A stretch of 32,000 bases of DNA from an uncultured Chloroflexia bacterium (GCA_963704755.1 OY969938.1:3000001-3032000), one strand, 5' to 3'; shown: positions 119 to 24,290, counted from the stretch's first letter. Program-made: numbers and translations. The notes: a model not told the origin generated them from the sequence alone.

Positions 119-1032
119 GGGGGTAAATCACGGAGGCACAGAGTACACGGAGAAGAAATTAGGAAATAAATGTAGCCCGGCTTTCAAAGCCGGGGGGGTA
201 GCTGAGGCTGTGAGGGAAGAATCTGGCTCTTCCCTCCAAATCGGTTTTTGATTTGGGGGGAAGAGGGGAAGCGGGGCAAAGAGCCGGCCAGGCCCGCTAG
301 GCCGGAGTGATGGCGGTTAAAAACCGCATCTACAAGTACACGAAGATCCACCTTCGTGGGTCTCCTTTTCGATGTAGACCGCGTTCAATGGCCGAGATGC
401 TGCCCGGCCAGTGTTTTCTCGGGTTCGAAACCCGAGCTACCCAATCGAGACTGTCCCGGCTTTCAAAACCGGCTATAAAAAGACCCTCCAGGCCGGGTTG
501 AGCCCCACGCAGGTGGGGCTTCGTGTATTTGTTGCCGCGACCTTGGTCGCCAACGCCGGCAGCAAAGCCCGGTAAAACGAATGCCCCATCCGTAATAATG
601 CAGCCCTTACGCCCCCGGCTACGAACAGGGTTTCGCTAATCGCTAACGGCTAACAGACCGACGGTGGGTTACGGGCAGGACCTGGTAGGCCAGGCCGGCC
701 GGCAGTTCGCCGGTGTGCTTAATGAGCCCTGCACCCACCTTACAAGCCGATATTCAATCGGGCATAGGTTTGGGTTGAGCCCCACGCAGGTGGGGCTTCG
801 TGTATTTGTTGCCGCGACCTTGGTCGCCAACACTGGCAGCAAAGCCCGGTAAAACGAATGCCCCATCCGTAATAATGCAGCCCTTATGCCCCCGGCTACG
901 AACAGGGTTTCGTTAATCGCTAACGTCGGTGGGTTACGGGCAGGGCCTGGTAGGCCAGGCCGGCCGGCAGTTCGCCGGCATGCTTAATGAGCCCTGCACC
1001 CACCCTACATTTCTTATGGCTAATAGCCACTC
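119..1032. repeat. Non-coding mosaic of palindromic repeat modules, including a direct duplication (495-744 and 773-1009, period ~278 bp)
   Basis: Solo GTAG-footed hairpin tGTAGcccggctttcaaagccggg at 171-198. Reverse-oriented ctcgggttcgaaacccgagCTAC at 418-440. Module gagccccacgcaggtggggcttcgtgtatttgttgccgcgaccttggtcgcc occurs twice (about 499-552 and 777-830). ccacggaggcac-type module at 121-160. The only ORFs are short and cross the repeats. Confidence 0.85.
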
Positions 1033-2706: not shown

Positions 2707-3756
2707 TTACTTATCCTTCAAACTTTCTCCGGATCTAACCGGTATGGCCTTTCCCTGGCACAAATGCTGGTAGGCGTCTACCTGTTCATTTGTGCCCAAT
2801 TTTGTATCTTCGATCCAGGCGGACTGCACGATGCAGCCGTCACCCAGGTGTGAGTTTTTGATGGTAGCATTGGGGCCGATCTGGCAGTTGGCGCCAATGA
2901 CGGTTGGCCCGCTCAGGTACGAGCCGGGGTAGATGATGGTGTCGGCGCCAATGCGGACGTCGGCCTCGATGGTGACGGAGGGGGGATCGACCAGCGTGAC
3001 CCCGGCCAGCATCCAGGCGGTGTTGATTCGCCGGCGCATGACGGCCTCGGCTTCGGCCAGGTGTTCGCGGGTGTTGATGCCCAGGGCTTCATCCGGATCA
3101 TCCGCGACCAGGGCTTGCACCTTACGGCCTTCCCGTACGGCGATGCCGACCAGGTCGGTCAGGTAGTACTCGCCCTTGGGGGAGAGCGGCACCCGTTCCA
3201 GCGCGGACCAAAGCCAGCCGGCCTCGAAGCAGTACACGCTGGCGTTCAACTCCTGGATTTGCAGGATCTCGGGCGTGGCCTGGGCTTCCTCGACAATTTC
3301 AAGCACCGACCCATCCGCGGCGCGGATCACCCGGCCAAACCCGTGTGAATTTTCCAAAATGACCGTCAGCAGGCTGAGCGGGCCGGGGTTGCCGGCCTGG
3401 GCCTGCACCAGGGCTTGCAGCGTTCCGGCAGTCAGCAGGGGCATATCGCCGGTAATGAGCAGCACCATGCCGCCCTCACCGGCCAGCAGCGGGCCGGCCA
3501 TCCGCAGCGCGTGGGCGGTGCCCAACTGTTCGGACTGCAGGGCAAACCGCGCCCGGCTTTCGAAAGCCCGGCGGATCTGGTCTGCGCCGTGGCCAATGAC
3601 GACCACCGGCGAGCGCGGGGTCACTGCGGCGACCGCCCGCAGGCTGTATTCGAGCATGGGTAAACCCAGGATCGGATGCAAGGGCTTGGGTAAAGCTGAC
3701 TTCATCCGTTTACCGAAACCGGCTGCCAGGATGACAGCGTTCAACTCAGGCTGCAT
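2707..3756 (-). CDS. GlmU-like sugar-1-phosphate nucleotidyltransferase with a short left-handed beta-helix tail (349 aa)
   Basis: From the ATG at 3754-3756: AVILAAGFGKRMKSALPKPLHPILGLPML, GTAHAL, LLITGDMPLL and EYYLTDLV match the GlmU uridyltransferase half. About 100 aa of hexapeptide repeats follow, then the ORF stops. The track ORF extends 33 codons further upstream with no support. Confidence 0.75.
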   Translation of the reverse strand: MQPELNAVILAAGFGKRMKSALPKPLHPILGLPMLEYSLRAVAAVTPRSPVVVIGHGADQIRRAFESRARFALQSEQLGTAHALRMAGPLLAGEGGMVLLITGDMPLLTAGTLQALVQAQAGNPGPLSLLTVILENSHGFGRVIRAADGSVLEIVEEAQATPEILQIQELNASVYCFEAGWLWSALERVPLSPKGEYYLTDLVGIAVREGRKVQALVADDPDEALGINTREHLAEAEAVMRRRINTAWMLAGVTLVDPPSVTIEADVRIGADTIIYPGSYLSGPTVIGANCQIGPNATIKNSHLGDGCIVQSAWIEDTKLGTNEQVDAYQHLCQGKAIPVRSGESLKDK

Positions 3757-3975
3757 AGAGCTCCTTTTGTGTGTACGTTGTATCGATCGATGTTCCCCCA
3801 CCCATCCGAAAATGGAAGCCTGTTTGTGATGGCTCCGTACCGGCTTCTTTTCCACAGGTAGCCAGAATCAAAAACAGGCTTGACCAAACCCTGGAGGCAA
3901 GCCTATCTCTACCATGGTATTTATTAAGATGAGGGTCAGAAGTATCGGAGTCCGAATTCATGGATAACGTTCAGG

Positions 3976-4046
3976 CTGGGGCGCCTGGATTCGAACCAAG
4001 ATCCACAGATCCAAAGTCTGGTGTGCTGCCGTTGCACCACGCCCCA
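3976..4046 (-). tRNA. tRNA-Gln (anticodon UUG), no encoded CCA
   Basis: Minus strand reads TGGGGCG TG GTGC AACGGCA GCAC A CCAGA CTTTGGA TCTGT GGAT CTTGG TTCGAAT CCAGG CGCCCCA G. This gives a cloverleaf with a 7-bp acceptor stem, a U1-A72 pair with G73 (typical of bacterial tRNA-Gln), a TTCGAAT T-loop, and anticodon loop CUUUGGA. Confidence 0.9.
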
Positions 4047-4185
4047 ATGTGGCTGTATAGCCCCAAAGCGCCCCTTATTTTTAACACAAAAATTGAATTT
4101 GTCCGAGGTCTGGTTCACAGGTTGTTAACGGTTAGATTCTTTCCTTGTTTTCTTGGAAATGCTCGGCCCAATGGGTAAAAGCTTC

Positions 4186-6544: not shown

Positions 6545-7190
6545 ACTTTATTAGCGGGTAGCTTTTAGCGATTAGCTGTTAGCTTTTAGCTTGTAGGTTG
6601 GGTTGCGGGCTTTTTCAAATTACCGGCGAATTACCGGATTGTGTAAAATTCCAGTCCCTACCCGTAACCCAACTTTATGTTTGGCGATCGCGGTTGTTGG
6701 GTTACGGGCAAGGCTTAGCTTGTAGGTTGGGTTGCGGGCTCATTCAAATTGCCGGCGAATTACCGGATTGTGTAAAATTCCAGCCCCTGCCCGTAACCCA
6801 ACCTTATGTTTGGCGATCGCGGTTGTTGGGTTACAGGCAAGGCTTAGATAACCGAGAATCCTGTTTATGCCCAAGCCTCAATAACGAGCCCGAACCCAAC
6901 CTACGAGGCTGTTAGCTTTTAGCTTGTAGGTTGGGTTGCGGGCTCATTCAAATTGCCGGCGAATTACCGGATTGTGTAAAATTCCAGTCCCTGCCCGTAA
7001 CCCAACATTATGTTTGGCGATCGCGGTTGTTGGGTTACGGGCAAGGCTTAGATAACCGAGAATCCTGTTTATGCCCAAGCCTCAATATCGAGCCCGAACC
7101 CAACCTACGAGGCTCTTCTCCGTGCCTGTGGTTAACTCCGTTCATATTAATTTCTTCTCCGTGCCCTCCGTGCCTCCGTGGTTAACCTTT
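6545..7190. repeat. Tandem/mosaic array of GTAG-footed long-loop palindromic repeats (three copies: 6589-6718, 6719-6847 plus extension, 6923-7051 plus extension), followed by ctccgtg modules
   Basis: Repeated core: cttGTAGgttgggttgcgggc-(~50 nt)-gcccgtaacccaac-(22 nt)-gttgggttacgggcaaggcttag. Copies 2 and 3 add ataaccgag...gagcccgaacccaacCTACgaggct. Preceded by a TTAGC-rich tract at 6550-6590. The same arms recur at 21308, 21544 and 24146. Confidence 0.9.
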
Positions 7191-13270: not shown

Positions 13271-13699
13271 ATGGCGGAGTTGAAAACAAAACCTACCGAA
13301 GAAAATGTCGAAAGCTTTCTGAATGGAATTTCCGACGAGAAAAAGCGCCAGGATAGCTTGGTCATCCTGGAATTGTTCAAGAAAATCACCCAAAAAGAGC
13401 CGCGCATGTGGGGCAGCAGCATCGTTGGCTTTGGCCATTACCATTATCATTACGATAGCGGCCGGGAAGGGGATTGGTTCGTGACCGGTTTTTCGCCCCG
13501 CAAGGATGCGATTACGCTCTACCTGGTGTACGGCCTGGAACGTTTCGATGACTTGATGAGCAAATTGGGTAAATATAAAACCGGCAAAGCCTGCTTATAC
13601 ATCAAAAAAGTCGAAGACATTAATCTGGACGTGCTCAGCGAGTTGATCAAGCGATCGGTGGAGACGATGAAGATGAGGCAACTCGGGCTGAAAACCTAA
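13271..13699 (+). CDS. DUF1801 (YdhG-like) domain protein
   Basis: KPTEENVESFLNGISDEKKRQDSLVILELFKKIT..PRMWGSSIVGFGHYHYHY.SGREGDW matches the DUF1801 pattern. AGGAG RBS. The TAA stop at 13697-13699 abuts the first repeat unit. Confidence 0.7.
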   Translation: MAELKTKPTEENVESFLNGISDEKKRQDSLVILELFKKITQKEPRMWGSSIVGFGHYHYHYDSGREGDWFVTGFSPRKDAITLYLVYGLERFDDLMSKLGKYKTGKACLYIKKVEDINLDVLSELIKRSVETMKMRQLGLKT

Positions 13700-14210
13700 G
13701 CGAGTCTCCAGCCCCCCCGGCTTTGAAAGCCGGGCTACATGCTAACCGCGTTTTGGGATGGTAGCTCGGGTTTCTAACCCGAGAGGTATCACCAGGATTC
13801 CGGTTTAACAAAAGCGGATATGCCGGCCGGGATGTGGGCTCGTTTCCGAATCCAAGTGAGTCTCCAGACCACCCGGCTTTGAAAGCCGGGCTACATGCTA
13901 ACCGCGTTTTGGGATGGTAGCTCGGGTTTCTAACCCGAGAGGTATCACCAGGATTCTGGTTAAACAAAAACGGATATGCCGGCTGGAGTGAGGGCTCGGT
14001 TTTAGAATCCAAGCGAGTCTCCAGACCCCCCGGCTTTGAAAGCCGGGCTACATGCTAACCGCGTTTTGGGATGGTAGCTCGGGTTTCTAACCCGAGAGGT
14101 ATCACCAGGATTCTGGTTAAACAAAAACGGATATGCCGTCCTGGAATGGCGGCTCGGTTTTCAATCCCAAGCGAGTCTCCAGCCCACCCGGCTTTGAAAG
14201 CCGGGCTACG
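13698..14210 (+). repeat. Tandem array U: 3 full + 1 partial copies of a ~157-bp composite REP unit
   Basis: Units start at 13698, 13854, 14011 and 14169 (partial, 42 bp). Each begins aagcgagtctccag..cccggctttgaaagccgggCTAC-22 nt-GTAGctcgggtttctaacccgag-aggtatcaccaggattctggtt... The units are near-identical to each other. Confidence 0.95.
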
Positions 14211-14267: not shown

Positions 14268-14789
14268 ATGTCCAAATATCACCGTTATTATTTGCCTAAT
14301 TCTTCGGTTTTTATCACTACCGTTACACGCAAACGAGAACCTATTTTCGAAACGCCCGCAAATCAAGAACTCTTTCTGCAAGTCGCGGAAAATGTTAAGT
14401 GCCTCTATCCATTCGATTTAGATGCCTATGTAATCATGCCTGACCATGTACATATGTTGCTTTCCCTTTTGGAAGGTTCATCTAATTTCTCTGTGATTAT
14501 CCATAGCCTGAAACGGAACTTCTCTTGGGAATACAAAAAACTATGGAATATTTCAGGCTCCGTAAGGATTTGGCAAGAAAGATTTTGGGACCATTTAATT
14601 CGGAATGAAACAGATTATGAAAGGCATATGGATTACATCCATTACAATCCGGTAAAGCATGGGCAGGTGAAGTCGCCCAGTCAATGGATATATAGCAGTT
14701 TCAATTTTTGGGTCAATAAAGAGGTTTATCCCATGTATTGGGGAGATGATCAAGTGCCAGGAAATCTTAAAGGGGCCGAATGGGGATGA
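14268..14789 (+). CDS. REP-associated tyrosine transposase (RAYT / TnpA_REP; IS200-like Y1 HUH enzyme)
   Basis: HUH motif in VIMPDHVHMLLSL. RAYT-typical C-terminal block WQERFWDHLIRNETDYERHMDYIHYNPVKHGQV, with the catalytic Tyr in YIHYNPV. About 173 aa. Single gene with no TnpB partner, flanked by REP arrays. I prefer the ATG at 14268; the track starts at TTG 14262. Confidence 0.9.
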   Translation: MSKYHRYYLPNSSVFITTVTRKREPIFETPANQELFLQVAENVKCLYPFDLDAYVIMPDHVHMLLSLLEGSSNFSVIIHSLKRNFSWEYKKLWNISGSVRIWQERFWDHLIRNETDYERHMDYIHYNPVKHGQVKSPSQWIYSSFNFWVNKEVYPMYWGDDQVPGNLKGAEWG

Positions 14790-14838
14790 GTTTTGTGGAT
14801 GCCGGAGATCGTTTGGGGAGAGCATAAGGTTGAATCCC

Positions 14839-15476
14839 AAGCGAGTCTCCAGACCTCCCGGCTTTGAAAGCCGGGCTACAAACGGACACGCTATGGAATG
14901 GTAGCTCGGGTTTCCAACCCGAGGGGTATCACCAGGATTTTGGTTTAACAACAGCGGATATGCCGGCCGGAATGAGGGCTCGTTTCCAAAACCAAGCGAG
15001 TCTCCAGACCTCCCGGCTTTGAAAGCCGGGCTACAAATGGACACGCTATGGAATGGTAGCTCGGGTTTCCAACCCGAGGGGTATCACCAGGATTTTGGTT
15101 TAACAACAGCGGATATGCCGGCCGGAACGAAGGCTCGTTTCCAAAACCAAGCGAGTCTCCAGACCTCCCGGCTTTGAAAGCCGGGCTACAAATGGACACG
15201 CTATGGAATGGTAGCTCGGGTTTCCAACCCGAGGGGTATCACCAGGATTTTGGTTTAACAACAGCGGATATGCCGGCCGGAACGAGGGCTCGGTTTTAGA
15301 ATCCAAGCGAGTCTCCAGACCTCCCGGCTTTGAAAGCCGGGCTACAAACGGATACGCTATGGAATGGTAGCTCGGGTTTCCAACCCGAGGGGTATCACCA
15401 GGATTCTGGTTTAACAACAGCGGATATGCCGACCGGAACGATGGCCTGTTTTCCGAATCCAAGCGAGTCTCCAGAC
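14839..15476 (+). repeat. Tandem array D: 4 full + 1 partial copies of a ~155-bp composite REP unit (sub-family distinct from array U)
   Basis: Units start at 14839, 14994, 15149, 15305 and 15461 (partial, 16 bp). Same architecture and orientation as array U. It has its own spacer (aaa[c/t]gga[c/t]acgctatggaatg) and a different REP loop (tttccaac). Confidence 0.95.
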
Positions 15477-20308: not shown

Positions 20309-21278
20309 TGAAGCCATCCTGAGGGTCGAAAACCTGGTCAAATATTTTCCGATCTTGCAGGGGATCATTTTCCAGCGTGAGGTCGGGGCAGTCCATGCCG
20401 TGGACGATGTGTCTTTCGATGTTGTTCGGGGGGAAACTTTAGGTCTGGTGGGCGAATCGGGCTGCGGCAAATCGACGACCGGACGGGTGATCTTGCAGCT
20501 TTACCGGCCAACTTCCGGGAATGTCTATTTCGATGGGACCAACCTGGTCACGCTTCAAGGCGAAGCCCTGCGAAAAATGCGCAAACGCATGCAGATGATC
20601 TTCCAGGATCCGTATGCCAGCCTGAACCCACGCATGACCGTCGGACAGATCATTGGCGAACCCATGTTCATTCACGAGTCGATGAGCCGCAAGGATGTTA
20701 AGGAAAAAGCCGAGAACCTGCTGCAACTGGTGGGGCTGAACCCGGCTTACACCTCGCGTTACCCGCACGAATTTTCGGGGGGCCAGCGCCAGCGGATTGG
20801 CATTGCCCGGGCCCTGGCGCTCAACCCGGACCTGATTGTGTGTGATGAGCCGATCTCGGCCCTGGATGTTTCGGTGCAGGCCCAGGTGGTCAACCTGCTC
20901 GAGGATCTGCAAGCCCAGTTCAACCTGACCTACGTATTTATTGCGCACGACCTATCGATGGTGCGACATATCAGCAGCCGGGTAGCCGTGATGTACCTGG
21001 GCGTCATCGTGGAGTTAGCCGCGCGCGATGAGCTCTACGAGCATCCGCTGCATCCGTATACTCAGGCGCTCATGTCGGCCGTGCCCATCCCGGACCCGAC
21101 CGTCGAAAACCGGCGCCAGCGTACCATCCTGGTGGGCGACGTGCCCTCCCCGATCAACCCGCCTTCGGGCTGCCGTTTCCGTACCCGCTGCCCGCTGGCC
21201 GACAAAATTTGCGCCGAACAACGCCCCGAATTCCGCGAGCTCGCCCCCGGCCATTGGGTGGCCTGCCACATGGTGTAG
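20298..21278 (+). CDS. Oligopeptide/dipeptide ABC transporter ATP-binding protein, OppF/DppF type
   Basis: [41 protein letters not shown], and C-terminal [14 protein letters not shown]. The start overlaps the upstream stop (GTG 20295 or ATG 20298). Confidence 0.9.
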
Positions 21279-21284
21279 GGGAGA

Positions 21285-21795
21285 TAGCTTTTAGCGTTTA
21301 GCTGTTAGCTTGTCGGTTGGGTTGCGAGCTATTTTATGGCGCTCGGATATCGAGCGACATCTGGTTTACCGGGCCGTACCCGTAACCCAACGGGGTTAAA
21401 ACGGCTTAGGGCTCTCCCTCACCCCAACCCCTCTCCCAGAAACGGGAGAGGGGCAAGAATGGCGACCAGGGTCGCGGCAACAAATACACAAAGCCCCGCC
21501 TATGCAGGGCTTAATCTCGCCGGCATTAAATTGAATATCGATCTGTAGGTTGGGTTCGGGATCGTCAATAATGATGGCCGGGGACTATGGTGTTAATCGG
21601 CAATGGCCTTGCCCGAACCCAACGTCGCGTTTGGCCATCGTGAATGTTGGGTTACGGGCAAGGCCTGGTAAAACGGAATTGTTTGCTGGCCCCGGCGTCA
21701 TAAAAAAGCCCGCAACCCAACCTACAGGCTGTTGGTTCAGCTACCCCCCGGCTTTCAAAGCCGGGCTACAAGCTAAAAGCTAACCGCTAATCGCT
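21285..21795. repeat. Composite of several of the window's repeat families in one intergenic block
   Basis: - TTAGC tract + gtcggttgggttgcgagc...cccgtaacccaac (21308-21392).
- ccctctcccagaaacgggagaggg hairpin (about 21428-21452).
- Inverted copy of the gcgacc/ggggc module (21460-21520).
- ctGTAGgttgggttcggg...gcccgaacccaac...gttgggttacgggc...gcccgcaacccaacCTACag (21544-21730).
- CTACcccccggctttcaaagccgggCTAC (21741-21770). Confidence 0.9.
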
Positions 21796-21799
21796 CTCA

Positions 21800-22615
21800 T
21801 CACGGTGTCGCCGTGGGACCGGGGGTGTTGGTGGGTACGAGGTTCGGGTCGATGGACCACACGTCCAGGTTGCTGAAATTGATCGTTTCGGGAGAGGAGC
21901 CGCCGGTCCGGGCGAAAACGCCGATTAATCCGCTGCTAAAGACCGGGTCGCTGGTGCGGAACTGCTCATTGCCTTCGATATAAAAGCGCATTTCCTGGCC
22001 ATACATCCACACGCCCAGGTGAACTGTCACCGGCGCGCCTTCGCGAATATCCCCCGAGGGCAGCCAGTCTTGCAACAGGACGATGTAGCCATTTTGCAGG
22101 CGTTCCAGGCGGGTTTGCCCGTCGCAGGTGACTACCCAGCGGTAACCGTTATAGGCATCCGTGGCCCGCAGCAGCAGGCCATAGCTATCCGAATCGCGGC
22201 ACAGGCTGGGACTGGCGGTGATTTCCAGGTAAAAATTGCCCAGTTCCGGTGCGCTGCGCATGCTGTTCAGCAGCGTCTTTTCGCCGGTAATAGCCAGGGT
22301 AAATTCGTTTTTGCCAAAGGCGGCACTGCCCGATGAAACCAGGATCTTTTCCCAGGCGCGGGTATCGCTGAAATCGTCGTGGAGCAGCGAACTGGACTTT
22401 CCCAGCGACAGGGTCGGTTGTGCGGTCGGCGACTGGATGGGTATCCGGGTGGGCGTAGCCGTCATGGGGAACCAGTCGATGGTGGCCGTGGGCGGTAGAG
22501 AGGTGGCCGGGCTGGCTGTGGGTTCAAGCGGGGTCGGGGATGTGGCCTGTAAAGGCGCACATGCCGATACCCCTACACAGAAAACGATCAAAAGCCAGGC
22601 CAGGCATACTTTCAT
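21800..22615 (-). CDS. Putative secreted lipoprotein with a Pro/Thr-rich linker and a beta-rich domain (function unknown)
   Basis: Signal peptide with a lipobox-like VGVSAC. Then a P/T/S-rich ~50-aa linker, then a ~190-aa domain rich in aromatic and Gly residues. The ATG overlaps the purA stop (ATGA). Confidence 0.6.
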   Translation of the reverse strand: MKVCLAWLLIVFCVGVSACAPLQATSPTPLEPTASPATSLPPTATIDWFPMTATPTRIPIQSPTAQPTLSLGKSSSLLHDDFSDTRAWEKILVSSGSAAFGKNEFTLAITGEKTLLNSMRSAPELGNFYLEITASPSLCRDSDSYGLLLRATDAYNGYRWVVTCDGQTRLERLQNGYIVLLQDWLPSGDIREGAPVTVHLGVWMYGQEMRFYIEGNEQFRTSDPVFSSGLIGVFARTGGSSPETINFSNLDVWSIDPNLVPTNTPGPTATP

Positions 22616-24135: not shown

Positions 24136-24290
24136 AGGAGCGGATAGCGGTTAGCCTGTAGGTTGGGTCGCGGGCTCTTTCATAACGCCGGCGTATGGAA
24201 AGGACTTCGTTTTACCGGGCATTGCCCGTAACCCAACGGGATTCGGACGGCTCATCCCCTGGCCCCTTCCCCCAGAACGGGGGAAGGGGA
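24136..24290. repeat. Solo GTAG-footed long-loop repeat plus a cccttccccc/gggggaaggg hairpin
   Basis: gcggatagcggttagcctGTAGgttgggtcgcgggc-(~50 nt)-gcccgtaacccaac (24136-24237), then cccttcccccagaacgggggaaggg (about 24264-24288). These are the same families as at 6589 and 21428. Confidence 0.8.

Follow-up and report, generated by a model that had tools for sequence, protein, structure and literature searches.

The locus described here is an ordinary, well-preserved REPtron with BIME-like arrays, a repeat system already known from bacteria. In all likelihood, its single intact RAYT gene is embedded amid its cognate REPs, which form a BIME-like tandem array on either side. RAYTs (TnpA_REP) are HUH/Y1 single-strand DNA endonuclease-transferases. 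A REP is a palindrome of 20-50 nt that folds as a stem-loop and carries a conserved 5' tetranucleotide, usually GTAG; in a BIME, REPs and inverted REPs alternate across linkers, often in tandem; and a REPtron is a tnpA_REP (RAYT) gene immediately flanked by cognate REPs. Every testable feature of REPs, BIMEs, and REPtrons is present at the locus, which lies in a 32,000-nt stretch of DNA (the window). Genomic context and homology suggest that the REPs are substrates of the RAYT, and we treat them as putative substrates throughout.

A RAYT gene between two tandem arrays

Tandem Repeats Finder (TRF) and an analysis of repeat families revealed two tandem arrays that bracket an intact RAYT gene in the window (Table 1). 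The preliminary description of the unit at 14839-14993, which proves to be the first full unit of the downstream array, proposed a layout of two GTAG-footed hairpins per unit. Seven units indeed read, on the + strand, hairpin A followed by CTAC, a spacer of 21-22 nt, and GTAG followed by hairpin B. The three upstream units have a 22-nt spacer and T as the loop base, and the four downstream units have a 21-nt spacer and C as the loop base. Consecutive dimers are joined by a tail of 88-90 nt, measured from GTAG-hairpin B to the next hairpin A-CTAC. Alternation of REP-A on the - strand with REP-B on the + strand, linkers of 21-22 and 88-90 nt, and 3.3 and 4.1 tandem units together make up the arrangement of a BIME. 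The pair had been called head-to-head; the arrangement stands, but with GTAG on the inside it is a tail-to-tail (TT) dimer in the published nomenclature (PMC3733652).

Table 1. Repeats and genes at the RAYT locus and dispersed REP copies in the window
Feature	Position	Strand	Details
DUF1801-family gene, upstream neighbor	13271..13699	+	Pfam PF08818
Upstream array	13698-14209	+	TRF period 156-157, 3.3 copies, 92% matches; units 156-158 nt
REP-A, upstream array	13716-13738, 13872-13894, 14029-14051, 14187-14209	-	Exact pattern matches
REP-B, upstream array	13761-13783, 13917-13939, 14074-14096	+	Exact pattern matches
RAYT / TnpA_REP gene	14268..14789	+	173 aa; NCBIfam NF047646, Pfam Y1_Tnp, 4ER8
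Downstream array	about 14796-15476	+	TRF 14832-15476, period 155, 4.1 copies, 95% matches
Degenerate, decayed half tail opening the downstream array	about 14796-14856	+	Followed by 4.1 regular 155-nt units
First full unit, downstream array	14839-14993	+	Lead AAGCGAGTCTCCAGACCT, hairpin A-CTAC, 21-nt spacer, GTAG-hairpin B, ~70 nt of next tail
REP-A, downstream array	14857-14879, 15012-15034, 15167-15189, 15323-15345	-	Exact pattern matches
REP-B, downstream array	14901-14923, 15056-15078, 15211-15233, 15367-15389	+	Exact pattern matches
Dispersed single REP-A	172-194	+	Pattern match; GGGGTAG after
Dispersed REP-B, loop base G (third variant)	418-440	-	Pattern match
Decayed REP-A-like hairpin without GTAG, adjoining dispersed REP-B	455-473	+
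Dispersed REP-A variant, central loop base G	21747-21769 (element 21741..21769)	-	Then GGGTAG; in the spacer after an oppF-like gene

The two arrays repeat each other in direct orientation, and their outer borders share a phase: the upstream start and the downstream end both fall in AAGCGAGTCTCCAG. The upstream array stops exactly at the CTAC of its last REP-A (14209), 58 nt before the RAYT ATG; this unpaired eighth REP-A closes the array and has no B partner. The downstream array begins ~10 nt or less past the RAYT stop codon and terminates within a tail at 15476 (...AAGCGAGTCTCCAGAC). The genes around the arrays are ordinary chromosomal genes. The first partial repeat unit takes in the last ~18 nt of the DUF1801 gene together with its stop codon (13680-13699), as judged from the alignment of repeat family D3, which reaches 13680; thus, either the repeat rewrote the 3' end of this gene or it was seeded from that end. 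The 3' part of every 88-90-nt tail contains a decayed REP-B-like stretch, e.g. CTCGGTTTTCAATCCCAAG at 14153-14171, which has 3 mismatches and lacks GTAG, suggesting that the unit was built from older REPs.

The RAYT open reading frame scores 151 bits (cutoff 80) against the NF047646 equivalog model 'REP-associated tyrosine transposase' and 31 bits, under the cutoff of 55, against the IS200 model. Its product aligns full length with the crystallized TnpA_REP of E. coli (4ER8, E=1.5e-31), the aligned residues including HVH and DY(I)HYNPVKHG, and retains an intact HUH motif (PDHVHML) as well as an intact catalytic Tyr (HMDYIHYNPVKHG). HUH motif, catalytic Tyr, and a score over the family threshold place the protein in the RAYT family, and this identity, together with the arrays close on either side, argues that the locus is a REPtron. 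The preliminary description had not cited the gene beside the hairpins.

RAYTs are typically present in a single copy per genome and show housekeeping-like inheritance. The GC content of the gene in the window is 0.40 vs 0.57 for the window as a whole, and its GC3 is 0.41 vs 0.65-0.71 in neighboring genes. RAYT homologues elsewhere also lie 5-15 GC points under their own loci, the one in the window being the most extreme. Judged by composition, the atypical GC3 would argue against a long residence of this RAYT and may reflect a recent arrival by horizontal acquisition, its tie to all REP copies being uncertain in that case. Its protein cluster has one member, on one contig. The best named relatives of a conserved ABC ATPase encoded in the window are Bellilinea, Thermanaerothrix, and other Anaerolineae, at 76-84% identity, which places the host near the first two.

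Two REP types with compensated stem differences

REP-A reads GTAG-CCCGGCTTTCAAAGCCGGG and always occupies the - strand in the arrays, and REP-B reads GTAG-CTCGGGTTTCYAACCCGAG and always occupies the + strand. The pattern GTAGCYCGGSTTTCNAASCCGRG has 17 exact matches and one match with 1 mismatch in the window and 0 in dinucleotide shuffles. All window copies (18/18) comprise GTAG, an 8-bp stem, and a 3-nt loop, as REPs do. The particular REP consensus of the locus is CYCGGSTTTCNAASCCGRG.

A and B differ at positions 2, 6, 11, 14, and 18: stem pair 2:18 changes from C-G to T-A, pair 6:14 changes from C-G to G-C, and one loop base changes. The earlier claim that two compensatory swaps and a loop base are the only differences is thus borne out. 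Both stem differences are from Watson-Crick to Watson-Crick pair, with no G·U intermediates seen among the window copies or in the 25-REP alignment described below. By a rough calculation, the chance that 4 random stem substitutions on 16 positions give two restored pairs is 28/1820 x 1/9, or ~0.002.

DNA folding leaves GTAG unpaired in both REP-A (-9.4 kcal/mol) and REP-B (-8.1 kcal/mol), each of which forms a stem of 8 bp closed by a 3-nt loop. The stem length had been put at 8-9 bp; the folds settle on 8, since a ninth pair would leave a 1-nt loop. Single uncompensated changes lower the stem stability to -6.0 and -7.1 kcal/mol, compared with -9.4 and -8.1 for the natural stems. The entire unit folds as two separate hairpins on either strand, in both the minimum free energy (MFE) and the centroid structure, in agreement with the fold expected earlier, and our recount of the long A-B hairpin gives the same 5 mismatches, in 23 positions. 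Thus the two inverted REPs do not pair as one long hairpin in these folds, as the REPs of a REPIN do. The natural A/B dimer is predicted to form two hairpins with GTAG free (-17.8 kcal/mol), whereas a hypothetical A/A dimer would form one 23-bp hairpin that buries GTAG (-29.8 kcal/mol). This comparison suggests that, at this locus, the two swaps keep both predicted substrates recognizable.

Compensated stems could also reflect structure in RNA: the hairpins may be selected mainly as 3' mRNA stabilizers, terminators, or RNase targets, with the RAYT incidental. The arrays do lie downstream of the + strand DUF1801 gene and of the RAYT gene itself, Di Nocera et al. (PMC3733652) argued for transcription of many REPs and for a role of these as RNA elements, and E. 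coli REPs are reported to affect mRNA turnover (PMC3479197). Nevertheless, we consider selection mainly at the RNA level very unlikely. GTAG lies on opposite strands in A and B, so that no single transcript bears both in GTAG-hairpin form, which points to DNA-level, strand-symmetric recognition. Moreover, the direct Watson-Crick exchanges noted above do not favor RNA, and Rfam has no match over the arrays. An intrinsic terminator is a GC-rich hairpin followed by a T-run; neither REP hairpin has a T-run after it, and the terminator scan does not single out the REPs. Terminator-like sites occurred at the frequency expected from shuffles. We rejected a reading of the repeats as intrinsic terminators or promoters.

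Conservation between arrays and dispersed copies

Copies inside one array are 92-98% identical, so most of them are not independent. The pattern that had been described for 'every unit' holds, but its weight as evidence was overstated, as the units are tandem duplicates. Comparison between the two arrays is more telling. REPs with their GTAG are identical at 45/46 nt, the sole difference being the B loop base; the 88-90-nt tails are 82-90% identical; and the 21-22-nt spacers between CTAC and GTAG are 55-59% identical. A binomial estimate of p ~0.01 for at most 1 difference in 46 nt at ~14% tail divergence argues that the REPs are held more strictly than the surrounding sequence. Spacers of head-to-head (HH) dimers, with GTAG outside, are conserved and those of TT dimers, with GTAG inside, are variable in the GTAG superfamily (PMC3733652). 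The window follows this rule, with a conserved tail (HH) spacer and a variable short (TT) spacer.

Counted as independent copies, the window offers the two arrays plus three dispersed REPs at 172-194, 418-440, and 21747-21769; all intact copies are coupled at the stem pairs. The four separate REP loci in 32 kb are intergenic save for the overlap with the last DUF1801 codons. Between the dispersed REP-A (172) and REP-B (440) lie 223 nt that bear no relation to the array tail.

These data bear on a reading without selection, in which slippage or unequal crossing-over has produced a young satellite, and the apparent conservation of the hairpins reflects no more than recent copying or homogenization by gene conversion. 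High identity and mostly non-independent copies within an array, as well as array borders in the same phase (start and end in AAGCGAGTCTCCAG), would suit such a satellite. However, a satellite does not account for conservation that is this uneven between arrays, for dispersed copies at three other loci with the same coupled stems, or for the GTAG-hairpin format, with different stems, at the unrelated RAYT loci described in the next section; we regard it as extremely improbable.

GTAG hairpins at RAYT loci of other organisms

The closest homologues of the window RAYT are 51-55% identical and lie mostly on short metagenomic contigs; none is close. We fetched the DNA around about ten RAYT homologues of other organisms (L116, L118-L125, and L128) and scored eight loci (L116 and L118-L124); L125 is a near-duplicate of L124, and L128 was read by eye. 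A GTAG with a perfect 7-8-bp hairpin lies directly beside the RAYT gene at every homologue locus examined. By the scored measure, GTAG with a perfectly paired hairpin (7 bp or more) lies no farther than 150 nt from a gene end in the window and in 8/8 loci; the background rate of 0.0105 GTAG-hairpins per kb, from 764 kb of unrelated loci, predicts ~0.004 per 360-nt flank.

Most RAYT loci examined hold two REP types with compensated stem differences, for example GTGCGAT/GTGCGGA (L119), GGCGCGT/GTCGGGT (L122), GGCAGGT/GTCAGGT (L120 and L123), and GTCACGT/GCACGTG (L128). Tandem arrays like those in the window are present at two of the loci. At L119, from a Chloroflexota MAG (JBCCHB010000135), 157-nt tandem units lie on both sides of the RAYT gene (2550-2872 and 3537-4079), and the order of parts in the unit is the same as in the window. 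The L119 RAYT is 47% identical to that of the window, and its gene sits exactly in the short-spacer position, between hairpin A'-CTAC and GTAG-hairpin B'. At L128, from an Anaerolineae MAG, ~60-nt units run into the contig end, indicating that unit length is not a constraint. We rejected the idea that the ~155-nt unit is a module common to the window and L119, because the tails score 16 against each other and shuffles score 13.3 +/- 2.4.

The 25 distinct REPs from the window, the homologue loci, and metagenome matches were aligned for a covariation analysis. All 7 stem pairs vary on both sides, with a covariation score of 0.743 compared with 0.147 +/- 0.033 for shuffles and at most 0.105 for slid partners; as REPs were gathered by requiring GTAG and a perfect stem, 100% pairing is given by construction, and the informative parts are the diversity of pair types, the conservation of the loop, and the position beside RAYT genes. 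In the loop, all 25 REPs have T12 and T13, and 24/25 have C14. The metagenome scan, with a pattern whose two variable pairs could take any of 16 combinations, gave 15 exact matches on 11 contigs, 15/15 fully paired; most are a third type, CCCGGG...CCCGGG. One metagenome contig (L110) ends in a RAYT fragment. A viral scan gave 0 matches.

The preliminary description had also proposed that these REPs are RAYT substrates and that the single-stranded hairpin is the selected state. Three observations speak for this assignment, which is probable on sequence grounds: an intact RAYT adjoins the hairpins, GTAG hairpins lie at every RAYT homologue, and 7 stem pairs covary. A scan of unrelated genomes for the degenerate hairpin core without GTAG returned essentially arbitrary hairpins, a negative control against which the association with GTAG can be judged: among the matches listed, GTAG is present in 1/106 and 47% are fully paired.

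The homologue loci also bear on what drives the A/B difference. Di Nocera et al. (PMC3733652, 'Organization of REP dimers') proposed selection against long perfect palindromes, which could form cruciforms, be cleaved by SbcCD, or stall replication, so that heterodimers would persist because homodimers are unstable rather than because of RAYT recognition. The predicted -29.8 kcal/mol hairpin of an A/A homodimer and the differing REP stems at most RAYT loci examined are in line with this proposal. Yet perfect homodimers, with a 23-bp hairpin as their fold, persist at the Kuenenia locus L118, and for the L119 heterodimer, too, folding predicts a long hairpin, though one with interruptions. The proposal also leaves unexplained the perfect self-complementarity of each variant and the conservation of GTAG. 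Selection against palindromes is therefore unlikely to be the main driver; it complements recognition of REPs by the RAYT rather than replacing it. Given the fold of L119, we rejected the notion that heterodimers always block a long hairpin; with this fold and the homodimers of L118, heterodimers that keep GTAG single-stranded are not general.

Other repeats in the window

A second, unrelated repeat family is present at 662-940, 6596-7105, 21315-21722, and 24161-24238. Its elements of ~85 nt have 14-16-bp terminal inverted repeats with outer ends GTAGGTTGGGTT[ACG]CGGG ... CCCG..AACCCAACCTAC and give 23 matches vs 1.6 expected, with tandem copies at 6586-7114. The family is GTAG-tagged but has a ~50-nt loop, and another RAYT-like enzyme, encoded elsewhere in the genome, may act on it. 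Short runs of TAGCTTT/TAGCGNT heptamers (6550-6596, 6908-6929, 21285-21311, and 21765-21783) adjoin its copies. By eye, a sequence of ~50 nt (…GGCGACC[A/T][A/G]GGTCGCGGCAACAAATACAC[A/G]AAGCCCC…) is found inverted at two distant intergenic sites, 501-555 and 21462-21510. HIP1 (GCGATCGC) is not enriched in the window, with only 3 sites, all within another repeat; a cyanobacterial host, which such sites might suggest, was rejected on this ground and on that of the ABC ATPase relatives.

The window spacer after oppF (21278-21800) is repeat-filled. In two Bellilinea-like MAGs, the syntenic opp-transporter loci (L126 and L127) lack both GTAG hairpins and copies of the second family, consistent with a lineage-specific expansion. 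At least three small contigs of the Calditrichota MAG Dive96_bin3.123 (L018, L039, and L055) each carry the hairpin core CYCGGSTTTCNAASCCGRG, and a repeat family is probably present there.

A model for REP recognition at the locus

Published work on TnpA_REP offers a framework for how the parts of the locus may work together. TnpA_REP binds only the folded single-stranded REP strand, not the inverted REP, and cleaves at CT/CA (PMC8266576). GTAG is crucial for E. coli TnpA_REP activity (PMC8266576), which agrees with the importance the preliminary description had attached to it, and in Marinomonas GTAG helps to choose the CT or CA cleavage site, like the guide sequence of IS608 (PMC8266576). 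Each unit in the window presents two REP types on opposite strands, each with a 5' GTAG, a perfect 8-bp stem, and a 3-nt loop. By homology with TnpA_REP of E. coli, S. maltophilia, and Marinomonas, each REP would fold alone in single-stranded DNA. The RAYT would bind the hairpin strand-specifically, recognizing GTAG in its unpaired state together with the TTC conserved on the 5' side of the loop; it would then cleave at a nearby CT or CA and rejoin the strands, and REP dimers could thereby spread, be deleted, or be reiterated. The two A/B swaps would keep both hairpins intact and prevent the 23-bp inter-REP hairpin that buries GTAG at this locus. The conserved loop TTC of the clade would fit a loop-reading enzyme.

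A broader reading is that REP dimers of this RAYT clade are usually heterodimers whose differences were selected so that each REP folds alone and leaves its GTAG guide unpaired, a 'split-hairpin' organization as opposed to the long hairpin of the Pseudomonas REPIN, served by a group-2-like protein acting on short, perfect, group-3-like REPs. We offer this generalization tentatively and consider it rather doubtful.

The locus leaves the current picture of REP and RAYT biology unchanged. Its value is that of a REPtron that is clean and wholly intact, from Anaerolineae, a lineage that has received little study. The putative substrates have a very simple design, with perfect stems, a length of 23 nt, and two stem variants that occur naturally. 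The locus is therefore well suited to asking how hairpin shape, loop, and GTAG foot are read by RAYTs, and whether heterodimeric REP pairs exist to keep GTAG single-stranded.

Relation to known systems

The elements found here have been described before: GTAG-tagged REPs, sub-families with complementary stem changes, heterodimers, tandem dimers with flanking DNA, REPtrons, and GTAG repeats of Chloroflexi (PMC3733652, PMC2817692, PMC8266576, PMC5581495). The E. coli REPtrons and BIMEs, with their Y, Z1, and Z2 REPs (Ton-Hoang 2012; Messing 2012; Corneloup 2021, PMC8266576), likewise have an HUH/Y1 RAYT flanked by its own REPs. They share with the window the alternation of REP and inverted REP with linkers, tandem reiteration, which is frequent among BIMEs (PMC8266576), a 5' GTAG foot, and dimers of two REP types. 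The proteins are also alike, since the window RAYT aligns end to end with E. coli TnpA_REP (4ER8), sharing its N-terminus and the length of the segment that follows the catalytic Tyr (50 aa). However, E. coli REPs are longer, imperfect palindromes in which a bulge is required, whereas the stems in the window are perfect, with 8 bp and a 3-nt loop. In addition, the unit in the window is long, 155-158 nt, with a conserved linker of 88-90 nt, and the host belongs to Anaerolineae (Chloroflexota) rather than to the enterobacteria.

The conserved doublet of two inverted REPs beside a RAYT recalls Pseudomonas REPINs, which adjoin a single-copy RAYT (Bertels and Rainey 2011; PMC5581495). A REPIN, however, forms one long hairpin, which in the window is disfavored by the 5 mismatches between the REPs.

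In geometry, the REPs of the window match those of group 3, represented by S. maltophilia REP_Sm and Marinomonas REP_Mb (PMC8266576): REP_Sm has 23 nt, with GTAG, an 8-bp perfect palindrome, and a 3-nt loop. Group 3 enzymes require a perfect stem and specific loop bases (PMC8266576), and covarying stems and the conserved 5' loop TTC are found in the clade of the window RAYT. In contrast, the absence of an N-terminal extension relative to E. coli TnpA_REP and a C-terminal tail of E. coli length are group-2 traits (PMC8266576). The group traits of the window RAYT are thus mixed, group-2-like in the protein ends and group-3-like in REP geometry, as read from these features.

The GTAG superfamily, for which Di Nocera et al. 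2013 (PMC3733652) compiled 24 published families, also accommodates the locus. Its members share with the window the GTAG tag, stems of 6-9 bp, short loops, sub-families with complementary changes, heterodimers with different stems, and dimers reiterated in tandem with flanking DNA. GTAG repeats have been reported in Chloroflexi as well, such as the largely clustered GTAG-23 of T. roseum (PMC3733652).
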